Shown here piece after piece: positions 52,144 through 63,985 of a stretch of DNA of 64,000 nucleotides. This stretch comes from Vulcanimicrobiota bacterium (GTDB lineage Bacteria > Vulcanimicrobiota > Vulcanimicrobiia > Vulcanimicrobiales > Vulcanimicrobiaceae). The first letter of the stretch is position 1; each line of letters opens with the position of its first letter. The translations under genes and the position numbers were made by a program. The notes below the pieces were generated by a model that ran no database searches, was not told the DNA's origin, and worked only from the letters and a program-made list of their open reading frames with translations. The stretch is taken from positions 1,952,001 to 2,016,000 of the forward strand of contig OY970223.1 in the NCBI GenBank assembly GCA_963714015.1, written 5' to 3'.

Positions 52144-54478
52144 GTTAGCCGACGCCCGGACCCTCGAGACGCTGGACTTTGCGGGCGTCCGCGATCGCGT
52201 TGTTGCGAACACGCGCACCGAGCGCGGGCGCCGTCTTGCGGAAGACTTGGTTCCGTTCGTCGACTTCGAACGCGTGCGGCGCGAGCAAACGGCTACGGCG
52301 CACGTTCGCGACCTCATCGCTTCGGCCGATATGCACGTGCTCCCGGCCATCGACACGGCTGAACTAACGCAGCGCGCGGGCGCCGGAACGGCGCTCGGGT
52401 CGAGCGAGATCCGTGCTGTGGGCGAAGCTATCGCTGCCGCCGCGGCAGCGTACAATAAGACGCGCGAACAGCCGAGCGAGGTGCTGGACGCAATCACCGC
52501 CGCGTATCGTCCGCTCAAAGACGTCCAGAATGAGATATTCGAGGCAATCGACGAGCGCGGAACGGTTTTGGAGCGTGCGTCGCCGGCGCTTGGGCGTATC
52601 CGCAAGAATCTGCAGCACGCGCAGGCGGAAGCGCGCGATCGGGTCGGCTCACTGCTGCGCAGCGCCAAGTATTCGAAAGCGATTCAAGACTCGGTCGTGA
52701 CGATTCGCGAGGGACGCTTCGTCGTGCCGATCAAGGCGGAGTTCAGCGGCGAAGTGCCCGGCATCGTGCACGACACCAGTTCGAGCGGTCAAACGCTCTT
52801 CGTGGAGCCGCTCGCCGCGCTCGAGGCAAATAACCGCGTGCGAACGCTGCGTTTGGAAGAAGAACGCGAGATCGCGCGGATACTGGCGCAGCTTTCGCGC
52901 CTCATCGGATCGTCGGCGGGGCAGATCGAAGCGAACGTCGAGATGCTCGCGCAGCTCGACCTGCTCGTCGCCAAGGCGCAACTCGCTGCGGCGATGGACG
53001 CGCGCCAACCGGAACACGTCCAGACCTCGACGCTATGCATCACCAATGGCCGCCATCCGCTGCTGGGCGACCGTGCCGTACCGCAGTCGCTGGAGATCGA
53101 CGAGCAGACGCGGCTTATCGTGATCAGCGGTCCGAATATGGGCGGCAAGACCGTCGCGCTCAAAATGGTCGGGCTCTTCGTCTGCATGACGTACTGCGGC
53201 TTGCAGATTCCGGCCACTCAGGGGAGCCGCATCGGACACTTCACGCGGATCTTTACGGACATCGGCGACGAACAATCGATCGCCGAGAACACGTCGACGT
53301 TCTCAGCTCATCTGCGGCGGATGCGGGAGATCATTTCGCAGGCCGGTGAACGATCGCTCGTGCTGGTCGACGAGATTGGGGGCGGCACGGAGCCGACCAG
53401 CGGCGCAGCGCTCGCGATAGCCATGCTCGAGCGGCTGAGTCGAGTGCGGGCCGGCGGCATCGTAACGACGCACGCGACCGAATTGAAACTCTTCGCGCAT
53501 CAGACGCCGGGCGTCGCGAACGCCAGCGTGCGTTTCGATCCGAACACGTTCGCGCCGACGTATCACTTGGACGTCGGCATGCCCGGGCAATCGCTGGCCT
53601 TTCCGCTAGCGCGTGCCTTGGGGATTCCGGGCGAGATCATCGAGCGCGCCGACGCGCTGCTGGGATCGCGCGAACGCGATTATGAGAGCGCGCTTGCGGA
53701 GCTTTCATCGCTGAGCGCGCAGCTTCAGGCTGAGCGCGACGGGGTCCAGCGCGAACGGCAGCACGTCGATCGCTTGCAAGAGAACCTGCGTTCGCGCACC
53801 GAGGCGCTGGAACGCGAACGCCGCGACTTCTCCGACAAAGCTGAGGCGCGTATGCAAGAGGCGCTGCGGGAATTCAGCGCAGAGCTCGCGCGCCGCGCCG
53901 CCGAGAACCAAGCCGCGCGACCGAAAGTGACGACCGCTCAAAGTGCGCTGCTGCAGCGAACGATCGAAGATATGCGCCGCGATTTGGGCGTCAAACCCGA
54001 AGCGCCGAAGACGGCAGACTCCGGAAGATTCGAATCCGGCGATTGGGTGCGCGTGCTTTCTTTCGGACAGGAGGGCAGCGTAATTGCCGACAACGGGGAC
54101 TCGCTGCTAATCGCGATCGGCCCCATGCGAACCGTCGTGGGAAAGAGCGACGTGCAGCGCGCGGGCTCGGGTGAGAAAGTGCGCCGCGGCAGCACCGGCG
54201 GCGGCGGCGCGGCGAAGATGGAGGCCGCCGCACGCACGATGAGCGAGCTCGACGTACGCGGCAAACGCTACATCGAAGCGGAGCCTTTGGTCGATCAATG
54301 GATCGACGAAGCCGTCCTTGCCGGCAACTCGCCGCTGCGCCTAATCCACGGCAAAGGCACCGGTATGCTGGGGCGCGGTCTTCAAGAGTTTCTGCGAAAT
54401 CATTCCAGCGTAAAAAACGTCCGCTACGGTGACGAAAACGAGGGCGGCGGCGGCGTGACGATCTTCGACCTGCGTTAA
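52136..54478 (+). CDS. mutS2: Endonuclease MutS2
   Basis: GIVHDTSSSGQTLFVEP, GPNMGGKT, DIGDEQSI, TTH, C-terminal Smr IHGKGTG. Confidence 0.95.
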   Translation: MAELADARTLETLDFAGVRDRVVANTRTERGRRLAEDLVPFVDFERVRREQTATAHVRDLIASADMHVLPAIDTAELTQRAGAGTALGSSEIRAVGEAIAAAAAAYNKTREQPSEVLDAITAAYRPLKDVQNEIFEAIDERGTVLERASPALGRIRKNLQHAQAEARDRVGSLLRSAKYSKAIQDSVVTIREGRFVVPIKAEFSGEVPGIVHDTSSSGQTLFVEPLAALEANNRVRTLRLEEEREIARILAQLSRLIGSSAGQIEANVEMLAQLDLLVAKAQLAAAMDARQPEHVQTSTLCITNGRHPLLGDRAVPQSLEIDEQTRLIVISGPNMGGKTVALKMVGLFVCMTYCGLQIPATQGSRIGHFTRIFTDIGDEQSIAENTSTFSAHLRRMREIISQAGERSLVLVDEIGGGTEPTSGAALAIAMLERLSRVRAGGIVTTHATELKLFAHQTPGVANASVRFDPNTFAPTYHLDVGMPGQSLAFPLARALGIPGEIIERADALLGSRERDYESALAELSSLSAQLQAERDGVQRERQHVDRLQENLRSRTEALERERRDFSDKAEARMQEALREFSAELARRAAENQAARPKVTTAQSALLQRTIEDMRRDLGVKPEAPKTADSGRFESGDWVRVLSFGQEGSVIADNGDSLLIAIGPMRTVVGKSDVQRAGSGEKVRRGSTGGGGAAKMEAAARTMSELDVRGKRYIEAEPLVDQWIDEAVLAGNSPLRLIHGKGTGMLGRGLQEFLRNHSSVKNVRYGDENEGGGGVTIFDLR

Positions 54479-54502
54479 ACGAGGGCGTCCCGGCCGCGCT
54501 CG

Positions 54503-57248
54503 CTACAGCCGGTATCGCAGCCTAAGCTGAATGCTGCGCCCCATCGGGTAACTCTGCGGCACGTAGCCGGCGCGTCCGTACGTCCACGGAACGGACTGCG
54601 TGCGTCCGTTGTTCGTGGGCACGCCGTTTCCGAGCGTATACGGGACGGAATATCCTCCGGCCGCTTCGTATGCGGCGGCGTAGAATGGATTACCGCCCGC
54701 ATATCCCGGCGGTCCGATCAAGTACGGGTTGCCTTGTAGCGAGGTAGGTGCAAAATTTCCGAGCAGATTCACGACGTCCAAGATCGCAGTCAATTTGGAC
54801 GTCACTTCCTGCTCGGCATGGACGTTAACGTACGTTTCCGGAGCGGCATAAAGCGTGTCGGGCGTCGAACCTTCGTGCGTTCCCAGCGAACCGATATACG
54901 GGTTCCTCAGCGAATCGTACGGCTGCGACGGATTACGAAGGAAGTAATAATTATAGCCGGGATCGACGTAGTTGTCGTTGGGGACCTGCTGCGGTTGGTG
55001 CGTCGCCGGATTGAAGATCCAGACCGCTGTGCCGTTTCCGTAAGGATACCCCGACTCGAAGGATAGCGAAGGTATGACCCGCAGCCGGCGGTTGCGCGAG
55101 TCGAATTCGCGCGAAAGATTCGCCGAAAACTTCGGGAGATAACTCACTGGGAAGAGCTGCCCGGCAGCAGCGGCCGCCGCGTTGAGACCGTTGTAGGCGA
55201 ACTGCGAGGCGCTCGACGAGTACGCCCGGACGTAATTTGCATCGACCGTCAATCCGCCATGGCTCAACCAAAGCTCGAAGCCTCGCGCGCGAAGGTCGCC
55301 GATGTTCGTGGGAACGCCGACGCCGCCCGGGGCAAGTCCGGATTGCAGCGCCGATCGAAAGTTGTACGGCAGCACGTCGATAAGGTTGGCCTCGTTGACG
55401 TTGTAGAGTGTCGCTCGAAATTCAAAAGGCGCCGCTCCCTCGAGGGAATAAGTGACGTCGTTCGCCGTTTGCGGCGCGAGTTGCACGAACGGCGCGGGCC
55501 TTCCATTAGGCACGTTGCCCGAATCGACACGATCTGCCTCGAGCGGCAATGGAGCGACGGTAATGCGATCGTAGCTCGCGCGAAACGCGATGCTGCCGAG
55601 GCGATAGACGCCCGAAAGATGCGGATCGAGTGCGCCGGCGTCGTAAATCGACCCGGAGCTCGGAACGACGTGCGTGTCGGTATAACGGGCGGTTGCCATG
55701 AGGTCGATCCGCGGCGTTGCGTGCCACGTGTCGCCGAAGTAGCCGAGATACGAAATCAGCGTAGGATTGGATGTTACGAATTCGCCGGCGGTCGGCACGA
55801 CCTGGTTGAGGAAAGAAGTGTTCGTGCGGTACTCGGCGCCGAATCGCAGATCGTCGTTTGCCGTAAGGTCCTCACCGTCGTAGCCTAGTCCCGCTTCACG
55901 ACTGCCTTGCGCCTGCGAGAGCGATATCGAGCCGTCGGGCCAGCCGTTCTCGTCCCAAAATGGACCGCCGGCTCGCGAGCCGTATTGCGACTGGTAAATC
56001 TGCACGCGCGAAAGCGAGTGGGGAGCGGAGTGAAGCCATTGCGCTTTCAAAATGTCATACGAACCGCGAACGCCCGACGCGAAAGCGACAGGCGCGTTTG
56101 CATTGACTTCACCCGGATACGTCGTGGAGCGACCGTCGAACTCTCCAATCGTCTCGCCGGCGTACGGCGAGCCGTACTGCTGATACGCAGCCTGACCGGC
56201 CAGGCCGAGGACGGAGACGTCGTCTTGACGGTCGACTCGAAAATGAACGTTGGATTCAAGCGAATACTCGCCGCGATTCTGCAGCGCCAGACCATACGTT
56301 GCAGCCTCGGAAGGATAGAACGTGCGTCCGTCCCCGTAGTCGAAGTACTGGCCGGCGGCCGTGGCGGCGAACGCGTAACGCCAGCGCAGATCCGGCGTAG
56401 CGCCCAAGATTTGCAGCGAGTTCCGTTGGAACTGCCCGCCACCTAGTCCCACTCCCGATTCGAGCGTTGCGCTCCCGGGATACGTGCCGGCAGCCGGAAT
56501 TTCGTCGATGACGCCGCCAAGCGCATTGTCACCCTGCGTCGTGTATCCCGCGAGCGTCGCCGTCGTAGAAGCAACCCCCGTCGTCGGGAGCTGCGCTCCA
56601 ACGATATTGCCGCCGGGCTCTGCGATGAGTCCTTGAGGAATCGGCACGGAGTCGTAGTCGAAGATCGCATCCGCGACCTTACCGCCGCGCAGAATTGCGT
56701 TTGCGAACTGATCCAAAACGACCCCCGGCACCGATGCAATCGCGCCCTGCACGGTTCCGGCGATGTAGCCCGAAAGTCCGGAGGACGATACCGGAGGAGA
56801 GATTGCGCGAGCCCCAGCTCCACTGACGGTGAAAGCGTCTGCGGCGTTTCCGATCGTAAAGGCCTTATTCGTCGCGCGAATGTTTGCGATCGTATGGATT
56901 TGACGAACCAGACGAAACACCAAGTACAGTGATTGTCCGGGCAGAACCGCCACGCCGCTTTGCATTGCGGCTTGGTATCCGTTCGCTTCTACGGAAACCG
57001 CGTAGTCATCCGGAGTTACGCCCAGGATGTTGAAGCGTCCATGGGCGTCTGAGGTCGCAGTATAGACACCGGAAGGGGACGACACCCTGATGCGTGCATT
57101 GGCGACCGGTAACCCGTCGCCGCTCACGCTGCCGACGATCGTCCCGGTCGTCGCTTCAGCCGCTTCGACCGATGCCGCAGCAAGAGTCTGCGATAAGAAC
57201 GACGAGGAGGAGCGCGAAGCTCATTCGCGCCGAAGATGGAAGCTTCAT
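54503..57248 (-). CDS. TonB-dependent receptor-like outer membrane protein with N-terminal carboxypeptidase-regulatory-like domain (indel in the signal region near 57170)
   Basis: TTGTIVGSV...SDAHGRFNILGVTPDDY, plug-like region, G/Y/N-rich barrel, C-terminal IQLRLRYRL; ATG 57248 with TAGGA upstream. Confidence 0.75.
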
Positions 57249-57299
57249 GAACGGTCCTAGAGAACGCGCAGGGCGTCCGGACGCTGAGTGAGGAGATAT

Positions 57300-57955
57300 T
57301 TAAGGAAGCGTCGGGAGAAGCGGAGGTGCGCGTTCACCTAGCTGGTGAACGTGAATAGCGCTACGGCGAAATGAGGCCGGCTCGGCATAATGACCGGCCA
57401 AAATCGGACTGTTTTCATGAGAGAAAGCATCGGACAAGTATTGCAGTGAAGTCGAACGAGCGTAGCGCACCGCTTGACGATCGAGCGCATCGCGCGCGCG
57501 AGCAGAATCGTACAAACCATTCCTAAAGCCGCATGCGCGGGAACGCTGAACCAGACGGGACCGCCAAGCCATACTCCGCCCCCAAGAAGCGTGCCGCCGG
57601 AGAGCAGTTGTTCAGTGCTTTCCATCGCGTAAAGCGCGGCGAACTGCAGCACGAGAACGTACGGCAGGTCTTGCAGCGGCGATCGTGCGCAGACAAGCGC
57701 CGCCGTTTCAACCAGCCGGTCTTTGTGCCGGCCCGGCCCGCGAAGAAGCTGGAGGCAATGCCTGCAAATCAGCAGGAGCGCCAGCACTGCGCCTGCGAGG
57801 AGGGTCGGGATCACGCTCAAGTGATCGTTATCGGCATATCCTCGCGCAATGAGGCCGCTGTTGGAGACCGTTTCGACCAAAGGGTCACCGAGCGCCGCGG
57901 CAATGAGCGCAACGGCGATAAGGAACGGTAGTCGGGTCCCGGCATCTCTATGCAT
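57300..57955 (-). CDS. Multi-TM membrane protein with a C-terminal RAPP motif (indel near 57450)
   Basis: About four hydrophobic segments in ORF 57338..58012 (from ATG 57955). The adjacent frame (ORF 57300..57572) ends HVHQLGERAPPLLPTLP*. Confidence 0.65.
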
Positions 57956-58025
57956 CGTCTGCGTCACGGCTCGTAATCGGCAATTGTCGTCCCGCGGGGT
58001 ACCTGCCTGCATGCTTTGCAGGGTC

Positions 58026-58442
58026 CTAGCGTGGTCTACCTGTTTTCGGTATACGACCGGCTAAGGCTTGCGGCGTCGCGGACTTCGCAGGTTTCACTCC
58101 GCCGCAGTTCGGGCAGCGGCGGGACGGCGAGCGATCCAGACGCGCGGCAAAGCGGTAACCTTTCTTGGCAACAGTCACGACGTATGAATGGCTTGCGACG
58201 CCATCTCCCAGCGCGCGGCGTAACGCAAAGATATGCTGTCTGAGGGTTCCGTCGGTCACCGATTCGTCAGGCCACAACCGTTGGAAGAAAACGTGCCGCT
58301 CGACGACCGCGCAGTCGGCCTCCAGCAACAGCCGCAGAATTTGGAAAGTTTTTTCACTGAGCTGTTTGACGGACGTGCCGTGCGTGAGAAGCCGCCGGGA
58401 AAGATCGAGCCGGTACGGCCCAAATCGATACATCTCAACCAT
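58026..58442 (-). CDS. Stand-alone OmpR/CadC-type winged-helix DNA-binding protein
   Basis: YRFGPYRLD...LWPDESVTDGTLRQHIFALRRALGD...TVAKKGYRF. Confidence 0.85.
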   Translation of the reverse strand: MVEMYRFGPYRLDLSRRLLTHGTSVKQLSEKTFQILRLLLEADCAVVERHVFFQRLWPDESVTDGTLRQHIFALRRALGDGVASHSYVVTVAKKGYRFAARLDRSPSRRCPNCGGVKPAKSATPQALAGRIPKTGRPR

Positions 58443-58449
58443 CACGCAT

Positions 58450-59182
58450 TCAATGCATGATTGGTGCCGGCGATCCGTCGGACCAGTGAGAGACTGGGAC
58501 GAAAAAGAGCGTCCACGGCTCGGGATTGACACGATGACCGTTATCGAAGATCACGGGAGAACCGGGCTCGTCGGCTCCCCAACTCGCACCGTCGTTTGCC
58601 GTATCCGCCTTAGGCGAATAGAACATGACGTGCGGCATCCACGCCTTGGCGGCGTCGGTGAGGTGCTGGTCTTTGGACATCATGTAGGCCATGGAGCCGG
58701 GTGCCGCTGCCGGAAGTTCTTTGGCCGCGACGGCAGCCTTGATGCGATCGTAGATTGCCGATTCCGAAAGGCCCGCCAGAACCATGCCCGTGCGTTTCAA
58801 CGTGTAAGGAAGAACCGTGCGGGAAGCCTCAGGGTTGTAGCAAACCGGCGCGCGCATCTTCCAATCCCAAAACTCGGAGTCTGTCGAACGGGTTCATCCA
58901 CGAACGCTCCACCAAGCACGTGAAGCCGTTGCTGCCCGTCTGGACAACGCGGTATCCGCTCGAGGTTAGGACCAGAACCGTCGCGTGGAGCGAAATCGAG
59001 GACGGCGCCGCGCTTCGGGCAAGGGCGATCTCCGCTCGACTTTGCGGCGTTAGATACTGCGCTAGCGGTGCCATCCGCGGATAGAGGGTGTCTTTGGCCT
59101 CGCCCTGAGCGCACGCGGCCGCCACGGCGAGCGATACAGCGGCAATAGCCGCGGCCGCATGAAATCCCGCTCGAGTCATCAT
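58450..59182 (-). CDS. Secreted hypothetical protein (frameshift near 58875)
   Basis: Signal peptide, EIALARSAAP...NGFTCLVERSW, continuing as RAPVCYNP...YMMSK...PHVMFY. Confidence 0.65.
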
Positions 59183-59375
59183 AAGTGCCTCCGTTCGGGT
59201 TGTTTTAGTACAACGTACTTGCTAAAAACAAGGCAACGGACCGGTTTGTGACCGGCGCGTCCGCGTTTGACAAAATTTGACGGGCTCGAGCCGTCACCGG
59301 CGGCCGGTTCGCTTCGTTTACCATGCGGCCCTTGCAAATTGCAAGTTCGGTAGCACTTTTAGATGGAGAGCCGGC

Positions 59376-59684
59376 GTGACGCACGTGAGGCAAATCGTAT
59401 TCGGTGACTTCGTGCTCGACGTGTCCGGACGAATGCTGCGGCATCGTTCGACGCCGGTTTTGCTTCGTCCCAAGGAGTTCGAGCTGTTGCTGCTGCTCGC
59501 GCTCTCCCGCGGTGCGGCCGTCAGCAAGGAGGCAATCATCGACGTGGTTTGGCATAGCGCGGACGTAAGCGACTCCGCAATTACGCAGAGCATCTACCGG
59601 CTGCGTCAAACGCTGAGCCGTCACGACCCGAATACCAATCATATCGCCACCATTCCCGGTCGCGGTTACCGATTCGCGTCATGA
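59376..59684 (+). CDS. Stand-alone OmpR/CadC-type winged-helix DNA-binding protein
   Basis: FGDFVLD...PKEFELLLLL...VSDSAITQSIYRLRQTL...TIPGRGYRF; SD GGAGAG. Confidence 0.85.
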   Translation: MTHVRQIVFGDFVLDVSGRMLRHRSTPVLLRPKEFELLLLLALSRGAAVSKEAIIDVVWHSADVSDSAITQSIYRLRQTLSRHDPNTNHIATIPGRGYRFAS

Positions 59685-60413
59685 AAATCGACGAGCGCGC
59701 CCCGGAAGCGCGCCTGCGTGAGGTACTCGGCGACGTCGATTTGAGCAACGCGCGCCCGATCAAAATTACGCGGAATACCGGATTGTTGTGCGCCGGTTCA
59801 AACTTCCTTGGTGCGGCTAAAATTCTGCCGGACATACGATGGTCGCACAGCATCAGCGTCACGCTTGCGTCCTCTCCACAGTCCGATCTTATCGCGGTTC
59901 TGCGCACTAAAGCGTTGGATGCCGATCAGCGGCGCATCTTCGATCGCCCGACGATCCCTGCGGACGGTTTGGCGGCGCTGTTGCGGCTTGCGGCAAACTG
60001 CGCGAGCGACGAGCGGTTTGAGTCGATCATCTTTGAAGCGTTCCAACTAGCCTCGCGCCGTTCGATGGATCACGCCGCGGCGAAGCCGTTCACTGCGTAT
60101 GCAGCGTCTCAAGCGTTTCATCGAACAGGAGTGCCACCGCGATCTGACCTTGGAACGCATGGCGTGCGTAACCGGCCTATCGACGTTTGCTTGTCTGCGG
60201 CAGTTCAAAGAAGCGACCGGGGCGACGCCGCATGCCTATCTCCTGCAATGCCGGATTCAAAAGGCACTGGGGCTGCTGTGCGTTCATGGCGCGAGCGTTG
60301 GTGCCGTCGCAATTGCCGCCGGCTTTACCGATCAAGCACACTTTGCTCGGATGTTCAAGAGATCGACGGGGATGACGCCGATGCAATACCGCGCTGCAAA
60401 CGCGCTTGGATAA
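59681..60413 (+). CDS. AraC family transcriptional regulator (+1 indel before about 60099)
   Basis: C-terminal LTLERMA...FKEATGATPHAY...GFTDQAHFARMFKRSTGMTPMQYR in ORF 60099..60413. Confidence 0.8.
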
Positions 60414-60590: not shown

Positions 60591-63500
60591 ATGCAGTCAA
60601 CCCTTAGCCGTGCGCGGCGACGGGCGGTTGCGGCATGCTCGGCGATTTTGCTTACGCTGAGTTTGTTCTCGACAACCCTCGCGCCCGCAATCGCGGCAGG
60701 CGGCGTGCAAGGAAACTTGACCGGGTCGGTAGTCGACACGAGTACGCAAGCACCCCTTGCCGACGTTCACGTAGCCGCCCAGTCGCCCTCGGGCAGCTTT
60801 TCAGCCAATCACGGACGCCGGCGGCCACTTCACGATGCTTGGTCTTCCGGCGGACACGTATACCGTGTCCTTCACCAGATCCGGGTACGATTCCATCTCC
60901 CAACCCGGCGTGGCGGTGTTCGGCGACGAAACAAACAGCGTCGGGAACGATTCGAATGAGCAAATCGCTCAAGACCATCGTTCACGTCAACGCACGGGCG
61001 CGCAACGGCGCGTTCCAGCCGACGCAAACGCAAGACGTCACCACGATCAGCGGCCAGCGCATCACGCAGGCGCTGGGCAATGCCACTTCGCGAAACGAGC
61101 AAAACCTTATCCTTGCTGCCCCGGGCGCAATGTTGGATTCGCAGGGCAACATCACGGTTCGCGGCTCGCTCAACGTCGAATTGGGCTATCAGTACGACGG
61201 CGTGAACTTCACGATTCCGTTCTTCGACGGCAACGGCGGCGGCGGTGCAAAACGGCACCGGCGGCTACCTGAACAACCTCGCGGGCGGTTCGGGCGGCTC
61301 GCTGCAAGTCGTCTCCGGTTCCGGCGACGCGACCCAGGGCAACATCGGCGCCGGCGTGATCAACATCGTTCCGCCGCGCGGAACCTACCCTGCGTCGGGA
61401 ATGTTCAACACGGAAGTCGATTCGCCGTACTACGGTCACAAATTCGACGTGAACTACGCATGGGCCACGCCGAACAACCGGCATCAGCGACTACTTCTCG
61501 TACGACGGCTCGCGTGACGTTCCGGAGTACGCGCCGTTCGGCATCGACGCGGCGACGATCGGCGAGTACAATGGACCTACTGCATCAGCCGAATAGACCA
61601 CGACGACCTTCAGAACAACTTCGTGTTTCGCTTCGGCCACAACAACAATATGTCCGCTGCAGTGGCTGATGCGTGTCTCGAACCAAAGCGAGTTCGGCAA
61701 CTACGGCGGTTTAGGGCAGGCATCGTACTACCCGTACAATCCCATCGCAAGTGCGCCGTGGAGCCAAACCTATCCAGGCGTAGTCGATCAAAACGGCAAT
61801 GTCATTGAAACACCCGCCCAGGAGTACGCAGCGACGGTGGGGTTGCTTCCCGGCAGTCCCGTCAACGGACGTTCTCCCCACGACGCCGAGCAGCTGTTCG
61901 CGACGCCGCTCACGTTCAACAAAATCGGTTACACGTGGAATATCAATCCCACGACATTCCTGAACCTGAACTGGGCGAATTTCTACAACCAGACGACCCA
62001 GCATTTCAATACCGCCGCGGAATACCAGATGACTGAGGAACAGGTCGGAGGTCAGCGCGTCTTCGGCGAAATGGATCTCACGCATCAATTCGGTGCGAAC
62101 CACACGACGACGCTCGCCGTTCGCTACCAAGACGACCTTCCGCGTTGGAACAATCAGTCGCCATGGTTTGCATCCGACACGCTGGGATATACCGGCGCCG
62201 CCGTCAATCAGGGCAGCCTCGCCAACGGCGGCGCTGCATATCTGCCGGATATTTCCGACTGGTATCTCCCGCCCAACACCACCGCGCCGGTAAGCGCGGC
62301 CAACCCATGCCCCAATTACCCCGGCAGTTCGACTGCGGGATCGTGCTACATCTACAGTTACATGATGGCGCACGGTCTATGGAACGGTATCGGTTCGCTG
62401 CCGCGGATTCCGAACGCAAGGACTCGACTACCACCATGCAATCTTCCACGAGTCGGGCATCGGTCTTCGCGATCAGTGGACTGTCAATTCGCGTCTGCAC
62501 CTGGATTACGGTCTTCGTCTAGACGCCGACAATTTGGACTGGGGACAGAACCCTTACAACTTCACGTCGGAAGCGCTCTCGAATCCGTCGGACGTGGATC
62601 CGTCGACGAAACTCGGGAATGACTTCCTGCGTCCGCGCGATTGGCAGCCGCGTTTGGCGGCGTCGTACCAACTCGGCGCGGACGACGCCCTGCGTTTTTC
62701 GTACGGGCGCTCCGTGAACTTCTTCTTTGCACAAACGGCCGGTACACCGTTTAACCTCTCGAACGTTCCGTCGTTCATGTTCCAAATGCCCGCGAAGGAT
62801 TCGACCGCGCAACCCGGATGCGGCAGCGGCTGGAATTCGTCACTGCCGGGCGGTCCGGCGTATAACGGTCCGGGCAATTTTTACAAGTGCCCGAACTACG
62901 CGGATTCCCTGTACTGGCTCGGCGATCAGAACTTCGATGCACCCGACCTGGGCGGTTACGGTCCGCCGACGTACAATAACTGGGATCTCCAGTGGTCGCA
63001 TCAGTTCGTAGGGGGACCGGTTAACGGCTTCGGGATGAAGCTTACGGCCTTCGATCGCCGCGGCTACAACGTGGAAGAAAACACGCTGCTGGCCAACGGT
63101 CCGCCGAACCCGATCACCGGTCAAACGGCGGCGTCGGTCTTTGCGACCGAAGCGAACGGCGTCGAGAAGACGTCGGGTATCGAGTTCATGCTCACCGCGC
63201 CGGATCGTCCGACGGGCCTGAGCGGATTCCTGACGATGAACTACATCAGCGAGTTCTCGTCGACTCCACCGGTCGATGCCACGAACTATGCGAACGATCA
63301 GCTGCCGATCCTGTTCCAGGACGAATTCAGCACCGGGCAGCTCTATCGCAGCGCATTCTTGCCGCCGCTTCAAGGGCGCTTGGGGCTCTCGTTCAAGACC
63401 GCCGGCGGATGGAAGATCAATCCGATCTTCGCATTCGACGGAGGCTTCCCGACGGGGGTCGGTTCGCAAACTTATGGGGCAGTGAACGGTCAATATCTCT

Positions 63501-63985
63501 GGATTCCGGAGACGAATTTCGGTGCGGCGACGCCGCTTGGCGGTCCGCAAGGTCCGGGTAATCCGTACAACGCCTCGTACTTCGTCGATCCGGCAAATCC
63601 GGGGAACTATCTCTCGCCGAACATCGCCGCTTCACGCGGCTATCCGGAACCCGCGCTCCCCGGTAACGCGTTGACGAAGGCGCACGGAAGTCTGGATCTC
63701 GATCTCGAGTATTCACCGCCCAGCTCGCCCTGGACGATGGGCGCGTATATTTCGAACGTGTTCGACAACCACTACGGACTGTGGTATCCCAACCAGCAGT
63801 ACCAGCCTGTTGCAACCGGCGTGTCCGGTCCGCAAACGGGAACGTTCGCGAGCGCTTATCCAGGCACACCATTCTACCTCAACGGCGCTCGGGATAATTA
63901 TCTGGGAACGTATGCCAACGGTCCTTTCCAAGTGCCGTATAACGCAGGTACGACGTTCCAGTTCTATCTGCAGCGGAAAATCTAA
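60591..63985 (+). CDS. TonB-dependent receptor-like outer membrane protein (multiple indels)
   Basis: SD AGGAG, signal peptide, GNLTGSVVD...LPADTYTVSF, plug-like VRGSL...YQYDG, GVINIV, barrel segments PRLAASYQL/RFSYGRS, C-terminal FQFYLQRKI; split over at least 6 ORFs. Confidence 0.75.

Follow-up and report, generated by a model that had tools for sequence, protein, structure and literature searches.

A conserved four-transmembrane protein family with a C-terminal RAPP motif as candidate arrest-peptide leaders upstream of envelope genes in Eremiobacterota

The window analysed here, a stretch of 64,000 nucleotides (nt) from contig OY970223.1 of a Vulcanimicrobiota bacterium (assembly GCA_963714015.1), contains three consecutive genes on its minus strand, the strand to which all coordinates of the two genes of main interest refer. 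The three genes specify a winged-helix regulator, a membrane protein that will be called the leader, and a large secreted protein that contains a CarboxypepD_reg domain and will be called the receptor. The leader has four predicted transmembrane (TM) segments and displays traits of arrest peptides, namely a C-terminal Arg-Ala-Pro-Pro (RAPP) motif, a length of fewer than 300 amino acids (aa) combined with TM segments, and a gene directly downstream on the same strand. The motif has a conserved position close to the stop codon and a fixed distance from the fourth TM segment (TM4), the stretch of mRNA around it is complementary to the ribosome-binding site (RBS) of the next gene in a locus-specific manner, and the reading frame is intact in a second data set. 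We consider it likely that the leader is a RAPP-type arrest leader, in which stalling would keep the RBS of the next gene open, as in the unmasking switches of the SecM, MifM and CutF type.

The leader gene and its protein family

As assembled, the leader is split over two frames. A 224-aa frame (58012..57338) ends FTFTS*, and homology to it stops at about residue 188, while the RAPP motif belongs to a second frame that extends from 57572 to 57300, with the C-terminus ...HVHQLGERAPPLLPTLP*. The family profile matches both of these frames, at positions 4-171 and 155-213, respectively. The receptor is also split, since the signal-peptide frame from ATG 57248 meets a stop and the long frame opens only at 57127. 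Three public runs were compared with the assembly. Logan contigs of run X1, with a depth of about 3, span 56900..57665 at 95-100% identity and show exactly two length differences, a C inserted behind 57451 and one base omitted at 57187; the runs X2 and X3 yielded no contigs matching this stretch. With the X1 base behind 57451, the leader becomes a protein of 218 aa from ATG 57955 without internal stops, which fits the family profile at 4-213 of 215 positions with 210.5 bits, compared to 183.5 bits as assembled. The choice of the start codon is uncertain, the candidates being ATG 57955, GTG 57967 and ATG 58012. Without base 57187, as in X1, the receptor is a single frame of 914 aa from ATG 57248, and its orthologues measure 907-927 aa. 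A preliminary description of this DNA, made from the letters of the sequence, had proposed an indel near 57450, which is indeed present in the X1 contigs, and the positions that it gave for the RAPP codons, the 51-nt spacer between leader and receptor, the helix and the hairpin held when checked against the sequence.

The source genome consists of one contig and its marker completeness is only 89.6%. On the plus strand of the window, a receptor-like secreted gene (60591..63985) is distributed over at least five reading frames across 3.4 kb, which points to either many local assembly indel errors or a decayed gene. Because the X1 differences sit where homology predicts them, marker completeness is 89.6% and the gene at 60591..63985 is split, residual indel errors are the simplest reading, and the frameshifts in both leader and receptor are most likely errors of the assembly. 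These two errors matter for the annotation of this genome. Family members with a frameshift or an in-frame stop were also encountered elsewhere (L007 on G013:C3, L016 on G004:C90, and G083:C5:201083-201681); most likely these represent further assembly errors in metagenome-derived genomes.

Sequence comparisons identify the leader as a member of a real, conserved and so far unnamed family of predicted four-TM proteins. Whole-genome searches detected relatives in 24 of 41 related genomes, and in 77 of the 201 genomes sampled across the phylum Eremiobacterota, all of them in one class. Three families carry the leader (62/113, 2/3 and 12/15 genomes), and no relative was found in the 73 genomes of 18 other families included in the same phylum-wide sampling. 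The related public loci are titled Eremiobacterota/Vulcanimicrobiota, Baltobacteraceae or Vulcanimicrobiaceae, with a few other labels. When 1.84 billion cluster representatives were searched with the family profile, 480 proteins had E-values of at most 0.001, and for 302 of these the E-value was at most 1e-10; the sources label them merely ‘hypothetical protein’ and list no precomputed Pfam domain. For the leader itself there was no credible match in Pfam or NCBIfam. The sole Pfam rows, Phage_holin_10 (E 0.014) and 7TM_transglut (E 0.02), lie far below the cut-offs and were rejected. A sequence search of the PDB found no relative, and Foldseek gave no match at E ≤ 0.001, the best E-value being 0.6. 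When the ESM Atlas was queried with the homologue L003, the next clusters after the family's own were hypothetical proteins of Actinomycetota (208-218 aa, score 0.96), and these clusters may connect the family with the Streptomyces arrest peptides, likewise with four TM segments and RAPP, that are discussed below.

It should be noted that the 13 loci L021-L033 were found with a profile of the four closest rows (alignment A2) and are consequently biased to the subclade of the window, in which the downstream gene is a receptor; four of them duplicate loci from other searches. Locus L006, from the unpublished genome G010, is a row in alignments A1-A3 and was counted in the RNA and partner analyses. 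The public record L033 is identical to L006 over the compared region, and our conclusions are independent of L006.

Of the 150 best cluster representatives, 143 carry R-[AGSP]-P-P within their final 30 residues (117 RAPP, 22 RGPP, 3 RSPP and 1 RPPP), mostly followed by 4-6 residues. The seven exceptions are the window's broken frame, entries in which the profile match ends early and entries with a differing tail. The motif was also present in 45 of the 45 distinct homologous loci, so that the retention of a C-terminal RAPP or RGPP in homologues, as the preliminary description had envisaged, was borne out. Alignments of 18 and 139 sequences show that Pro-Pro is invariant and Arg nearly so, and the consensus P-x-x-x-[RQ]-[IL]-G-[EG]-R-A-P-P extends upstream of the motif with P at -8, R/Q at -4, I/L at -3, G at -2 and E/G at -1. 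The tail past the motif is variable and predicted to be disordered. In a rough set of open reading frames (ORFs) of this genome, the observed-to-expected ratios were 0.55 for RAPP and 0.45 for RGPP, versus 1.23 for AAPP and 1.0 for AGPP. RAPP and RGPP have been reported to cause robust arrest in many contexts, refractory to elongation factor P (EF-P), and to be avoided in bacterial proteomes (Fujiwara et al., EMBO J 2025, PMC12992588). On the basis of this published work, we infer by analogy that the RAPP tail of the leader would stall the ribosomes of this organism.

An AlphaFold2 model was obtained for L003, which is 52% identical to the leader, from 139 aligned sequences, with a predicted local distance difference test (pLDDT) value of 86.1 and a predicted template modelling (pTM) score of 0.78. 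The model has helices at residues 2-32, 48-73, 81-91, 94-119 and 135-191, among which are four TM helices; the C-terminal tail of about 27 residues, which bears the motif, is disordered and was modelled with low confidence. Since Arg-rich stretches are located at the N-terminus, in the link between TM2 and TM3 and past TM4, the positive-inside rule suggests that the leader is a polytopic inner-membrane protein with both termini inside. In the alignments of 18 and 139 sequences, E28, G34, D42, P50, Q105, E113, E116, W130-L-G-x-P134 and H142 are invariant or nearly so, and no Cys is found among such columns. Judging from their positions along the helices, the conserved residues would all be placed towards the outer face of the membrane. 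D42 is the Asp of the DNDHL segment and H142 the His of the PAHAA segment; both segments had been flagged in the preliminary description, and both residues proved to be nearly invariant. In 132 of 137 sequences, 76-80 residues separate W130, just before TM4, from the Arg of the motif, with a poorly conserved linker sequence in between. As 30-40 residues of a nascent chain are hidden in the ribosome exit tunnel, TM4 would have just left the ribosome when Pro-Pro is reached.

Downstream genes and pairing at their ribosome-binding sites

The RNA analyses were performed on 29 non-duplicate loci, using the last codons of the leader, the spacer and the start of the next gene, with a footprint of 30 nt for the ribosome. 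In these loci, the downstream gene follows on the same strand after 23-109 nt. In the window, CTAGGTGAACGCGCA (57341..57327) is complementary to TGCGCGTTC-TCTAG (57270..57257), with nine perfect pairs, a bulge and then CTAG opposite CTAG, and this helix overlaps the weak Shine-Dalgarno (SD)-like TAGGA (57259..57255) by 3 nt. Folding of 57236..57360 gave a minimum free energy (MFE) of -35.7 kcal/mol (z = -3.73), a stability that was reached in none of 200 shuffles, and the helix forms the core of the MFE structure. Its mean pair probability is 0.975 versus 0.023 for a local hairpin that competes for the same strand, although forcing this hairpin costs only 3 kcal/mol.

Across the 29 loci, pairing of the footprint with the RBS had a mean energy of -15.4 kcal/mol, compared to -12.3 kcal/mol for six control segments of the same gene (Wilcoxon p-value of about 1e-4). 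The footprint paired better than the control mean in 22 loci and better than all six controls in 14. The pairing stretch mostly begins 10-13 nt past the first base of the Arg codon, and usually comprises the final base of Pro-Pro and the next 2-3 codons, often Leu-Leu encoded as CUCCUN. Bases flanking the SD sequence change jointly with bases of the tail, CUCCUUCA occurring with UGAAGGAG, GCUCCUCUU with AAGAGGAGC, and UACCUGUUCG with CGAACAGGUA. When the stall-site stretch of each locus was paired with its own RBS the mean energy was -19.4 kcal/mol, versus -15.2 kcal/mol when loci were swapped. None of 20,000 permutations was as good, also after omission of four near-duplicates, and the window ranks second among the 29 loci. 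The loci are kin and, accordingly, the own-versus-swapped and footprint figures overstate their independence. Kinship alone does not by itself create complementarity between stall site and RBS. The anti-RBS helix of the preliminary description thus stands in a more general form: a locus-specific pairing between stall site and RBS is found throughout the family, whereas the exact helix with the LGERA codons is not conserved and most members use codons 3' of Pro-Pro instead.

A hairpin with the G-E-R codons as its 3' arm, as in the window, recurs among the loci but is not universal. In 10 of the 29 loci it belongs to the most stable tenth of the segments of its own gene, where about three would be expected, which is a moderate signal. 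Since the register of the hairpin varies between loci, energies were compared in place of column-wise covariation. A different, GC-rich hairpin lies directly 5' of the SD sequence in receptor-clade spacers (L002, L003, L004, L022, L023, L024, L026, L027, L029 and L031), followed by TTTT in L022. It could be a pause site, a processing site or a stabiliser.

With regard to the nature of the downstream genes, 45 distinct loci were classified. The partner was a LytR-CpsA-Psr (LCP) gene in 24 and a receptor in 15, nine of the latter stemming from the subclade-biased search, and six partners were left unclassified. LytR_cpsA_psr was detected in 11 of the 14 downstream genes that were scanned. The receptor partner is restricted to the subclade of the window (L002, L003, L004, L006, L007 and L013), and a receptor with 59-77% identity was also found downstream in 13 of the 13 loci L021-L033. 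From these domain assignments, the usual partner of the family is a predicted LCP gene and the receptor partner is the mark of a subclade. The receptor linkage put forward in the preliminary description therefore applies to the subclade and not to the family as a whole. With LCP as the main partner, a logic of metal uptake is not implied.

The window receptor matches CarboxypepD_reg (PF13620, E 2.4e-13), and the X1 variant restores its signal-peptide frame; a signal peptide together with this domain is the N-terminal arrangement of Acidobacteria-type receptors. No match to the beta-barrel domain PF00593 was found in its 874-aa frame at E ≤ 0.1. This domain is present in the orthologues L030 (74% identical, E 5e-18) and L022 (60% identical, E 4e-18), and not in L023 and L027. 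The Plug domain PF07715 was absent from the window protein at E ≤ 0.1 and from four orthologues at E ≤ 1. The ESM Atlas clusters nearest to the window receptor carry both PF00593 and Plug and are TonB-dependent-receptor-like.

This genome contains at least three pairs of a polytopic RxPP leader and a receptor. One of the two pairs outside the window starts with a multi-TM ORF of 169 aa that ends ...SRPPPLFA* (G000:C1:3228611-3229120, plus strand; L035, L068) and is followed after 79 nt by a complete TonB-dependent receptor, which has CarboxypepD_reg, Plug and beta-barrel domains. The stop-codon region of this ORF, CTTAAACGC, is perfectly complementary to GCGTTTAAG, a stretch directly adjoining the receptor SD sequence. 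The other is a multi-TM ORF of 187 aa that ends ...SKRGPPL* (G000:C1:996680-997243, plus strand; L067), directly upstream of a 902-aa receptor with CarboxypepD_reg and Plug domains. Homology of these two leaders to the family was not established, the hhalign probability being 45% for the 169-aa and 8% for the 187-aa protein.

The features at the locus are compiled in Table 1. A scan of 54300..58800 for promoters and terminators yielded nothing exceeding the shuffled expectation. The upstream regulator was considered as a part of the system and rejected, as Trans_reg_C genes did not adjoin the leader in any related locus (E ≤ 0.01). A second Trans_reg_C regulator (E 1e-18; 59277..59684, plus strand) adjoins the operon, and an ORF with an AraC-like helix-turn-helix, recognised by eye (60099..60413, plus strand), is located between two receptor-type loci.

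Table 1. Features of the leader-receptor locus, in window coordinates
Feature	Position	Strand	Basis or remark
Leader gene, predicted four-TM protein, C-terminal GERAPP plus six residues	57300..57955	-	Frames, profile match, homologues; 218 aa with the extra base of run X1
Candidate arrest module I-H-V-H-Q-L-G-E-R-A-P-P	57321..57356	-	Sequence and family consensus
RAPP codons CGC GCA CCT CCG	57332..57321	-	In the frame ending ...HVHQLGERAPPLLPTLP
Leader stop codon TAA, six codons past RAPP	57302..57300	-	Sequence
Putative anti-RBS strand, L-G-E-R-A codons, CTAGGTGAACGCGCA	57327..57341	-	Within the footprint of a ribosome stalled at Pro-Pro
RBS-side helix strand TGCGCGTTCTCTAG	57257..57270	-	Overlaps the receptor SD-like TAGGA
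Local hairpin CGTTCACC-agcta-GGTGAACG (arms 57351..57344 and 57338..57331)	57331..57351	-	Competes for the anti-RBS strand; -12.4 kcal/mol alone
Receptor gene, secreted CarboxypepD_reg protein, putative TonB-dependent-receptor-like beta-barrel	54503..57248	-	Domain scans, frames, orthologues
Upstream winged-helix regulator, Trans_reg_C (E 2e-14), CadC/HilA-like, without receiver domain	58026..58532	-	
Apparent 1-base deletion in the assembly	57451..57452	.	Run X1 contigs one base longer
Extra assembly base in the receptor signal-peptide region	57187	.	Missing from the run X1 contigs

A stalling switch and alternative explanations

In the mechanism that we favour, the last approximately 12 residues before the short tail would represent an arrest module of the RAPP type, and the ribosome would stall at Pro-Pro. 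It would then cover the L-G-E-R-A codons in the window, or the 2-3 codons past Pro-Pro in most relatives. Without a stalled ribosome, the covered stretch would be free to pair with the RBS of the next gene. A stall would keep this RBS open, thereby allowing translation of the downstream gene, which is the receptor here and the LCP enzyme in most relatives, and a fast resolution of the stall would let the helix re-form and silence that gene. Release may be brought about by the pulling force that arises upon the insertion of TM3-TM4 or upon folding, and the fixed spacing between TM4 and the RAPP motif fits with release by TM3-TM4 insertion. It is a speculative and rather doubtful idea that the cluster of E28, D42, E113, E116 and H142, which would face the periplasm, makes stall release dependent on an envelope signal. 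We regard as unlikely the more far-reaching idea that the four-TM body acts as a co-translational sensor, in which these five residues would set the speed of TM3-TM4 insertion and folding and thereby the arrest time, and which, re-wired in evolution between an LCP glycopolymer ligase and a receptor, would report a common envelope signal, for example the supply of divalent cations.

Several observations weigh against a regulated stall that unmasks the RBS. The X1 contigs with the intact frames are shallow, with their depth of about 3, and possibly stem from the same sample as the assembly, for which reason they do not represent independent proof. For 7 of the 29 loci, pairing between footprint and RBS does not exceed the control mean. 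When the footprint was masked in silico, the RBS became only modestly more accessible: its mean unpaired probability increased from 0.33 to 0.41 for the receptor clade and from 0.36 to 0.45 for the LCP clade, compared to 0.34 and 0.37, respectively, with a mock footprint. In the window, the register of the helix, which involves the LGERA codons, differs from that in most relatives, and the SD sequence is weak (-3.9 kcal/mol versus -6.6 to -11 kcal/mol in receptor-clade relatives). The switch between LCP and receptor partners argues against a simple feedback on metal uptake and favours a more general envelope signal. Lastly, since the protein body shows good conservation and a confident fold, the leader could play a role in its own right, and the helix would then simply couple the translation of the two genes.

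Such ordinary coupling without regulated arrest would imply that the leader is a working membrane protein, perhaps one that teams up with the envelope protein encoded downstream, and that its RAPP tail contributes to structure or binding. Every ribosome that moves through the tail would open the RBS helix and thereby set the ratio of the two products. The conserved TM body with its confident fold would be accommodated, as would the three leader-receptor pairs in this genome, and the helix would enforce coupling with or without a stall. Nevertheless, we think this quite improbable, since RAPP and RGPP are avoided in proteomes and stall robustly in many contexts (PMC12992588), since the motif keeps a constant short distance to the stop codon and a constant distance to TM4, and since the post-motif tail is variable and predicted to be disordered, which is unlike a binding motif. 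A stall might also act on transcription rather than translation by blocking the loading of Rho in the spacer, so that the downstream gene would be transcribed exclusively while the ribosome is arrested, with the RBS helix being secondary. This is how CruR acts, which has been studied best among the RAPP leaders that precede a gene for a TonB-dependent transporter (PMC9426467), and the GC-rich hairpins before the SD sequence in several receptor-clade spacers could offer a pause site. The spacers are short, however, with 23-109 nt in the family and 51 nt in the window versus 162 bp in Bordetella pertussis, the scan detected no terminator-like site between leader and receptor, and a mechanism based on Rho does not require the locus-specific complementarity between stall site and RBS. 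We therefore consider control by Rho very unlikely. The presence of the helix argues for translational rather than Rho-dependent control, unlike the situation for CruR.

The reading as a decaying pair of pseudogenes, in which the RAPP frame would be a chance out-of-frame reading in GC-rich DNA, has in its favour that leader and receptor are both frameshifted as assembled, that the neighbouring receptor-like gene at 60591..63985 occupies several frames, and that GC-rich genomes yield many spurious ORFs with RAPP-like ends. It is difficult to reconcile with the match of the second leader frame to the family profile at 155-213 and with the X1 contigs, which lack either frameshift and in which both genes are full length. 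Moreover, a genome of one contig with 89.6% marker completeness fits residual indel errors. Decay of these genes thus appears highly improbable, and an arrest leader that controls translation of the downstream gene remains our preferred explanation.

Relation to known arrest peptides and implications

RAPP/RGPP arrest peptides upstream of diverse genes have been described by Fujiwara et al. (PMC12992588), among them four-TM RAPP proteins of Streptomyces lividans (SLIV_18480, SLIV_27375, SLIV_33595 and SLIV_33605) that were tested as arrest peptides, with a large effect of the Arg-to-Ala exchange in reporters. The leader resembles these SLIV proteins as they are described there: it has fewer than 300 aa, membrane signals, R-A/G-P-P near the stop, four TM segments and a position directly upstream of the presumed target. 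The position of the arrest Arg is also similar, at R225 in SLIV_33595 and at about R210 in the leader. On the basis of conserved His and Cys residues, a role as metal or envelope sensor has been proposed for peptides in that study. Compared by description, the leader differs in its lineage, Eremiobacterota, and in its LCP or CarboxypepD_reg receptor partners. ‘TonB-dependent receptor’ is the largest downstream class of the 2025 survey with 5,450 RAPP cases, and nearly all leaders upstream of such receptors have a signal peptide, whereas the leader upstream of the receptor studied here has several TM segments (PMC12992588). The survey's table of the top 30 downstream classes contains no LCP class, and signature strings of the family were not found in the searchable part of its RAPP list, which is weak evidence of absence (PMC12992588). 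A full-text literature search found no paper that combines LytR-CpsA-Psr with arrest-peptide terms.

In B. pertussis, expression of the downstream gene requires the RAPP motif of CruR, a DUF2946 (PF11162) protein (Roy et al., mBio 2022, PMC9426467), and CruR has been reported to stall ribosomes in vitro (PMC12992588, PMC9426467). The leader shares with CruR the RAPP motif a few residues before the stop, a downstream gene that resembles those for TonB-dependent transporters and a conserved spacing between the sensor part and the motif. It differs from CruR in that the latter has a conserved CXXC about 45 residues before RAPP and a single N-terminal export signal, whereas the leader family has no conserved Cys and four TM segments; the spacers measure 162 bp and 51 nt, respectively. 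PF11162 had no match in the window frames (E ≤ 0.1) or in 18 family members. Because of the missing Pfam match, the lack of a conserved Cys and the four TM segments versus one export signal, the leader is not a DUF2946 protein of the CruR kind, which the preliminary description had cited as a known case.

In Rhodobacter capsulatus, the ribosome stalled on CutF opens a structure in the mRNA that otherwise masks the cutO RBS (Ozturk et al., bioRxiv 2025). The proposed unmasking of the next gene's RBS and a nascent chain that is engaged with the membrane during the stall would be common to the leader, CutF, SecM and MifM, while CutF, as described in that source, is a DUF2946 protein with a proline-rich motif, which the leader is not. 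SecM-secA and MifM-yidC2 are systems in which arrest peptides regulate the translocation machinery that pulls on them. SecM, MifM, VemP and ApdA/ApdP/ApcA target components of Sec or YidC, whereas the genes downstream of the leader encode envelope proteins. Both RAPP leaders that precede genes for TonB-dependent receptors and RAPP arrest peptides with four TM segments were thus already published in 2022 and 2025, contrary to the novelty that was initially assumed for the present case; the new elements are the LCP partner and the lineage.

It has recently been proposed that RAPP-tailed arrest peptides control much beyond protein export, and few cases have clear comparative support. The present family is useful in this respect, because its motif is nearly universal and keeps a constant distance to a TM helix, because the putative ribosome footprint contains an anti-RBS stretch that co-varies with the RBS, and because there are two kinds of envelope partners. 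Members of the soil phylum Eremiobacterota have hardly been cultured and are known almost entirely through metagenomes, and for these bacteria the family provides a concrete and testable case of translational control of outer-membrane receptors and cell-wall ligases. If the leader indeed acted as a sensor, this would be the first example of control by an arrest peptide over the attachment of cell-wall polymers.

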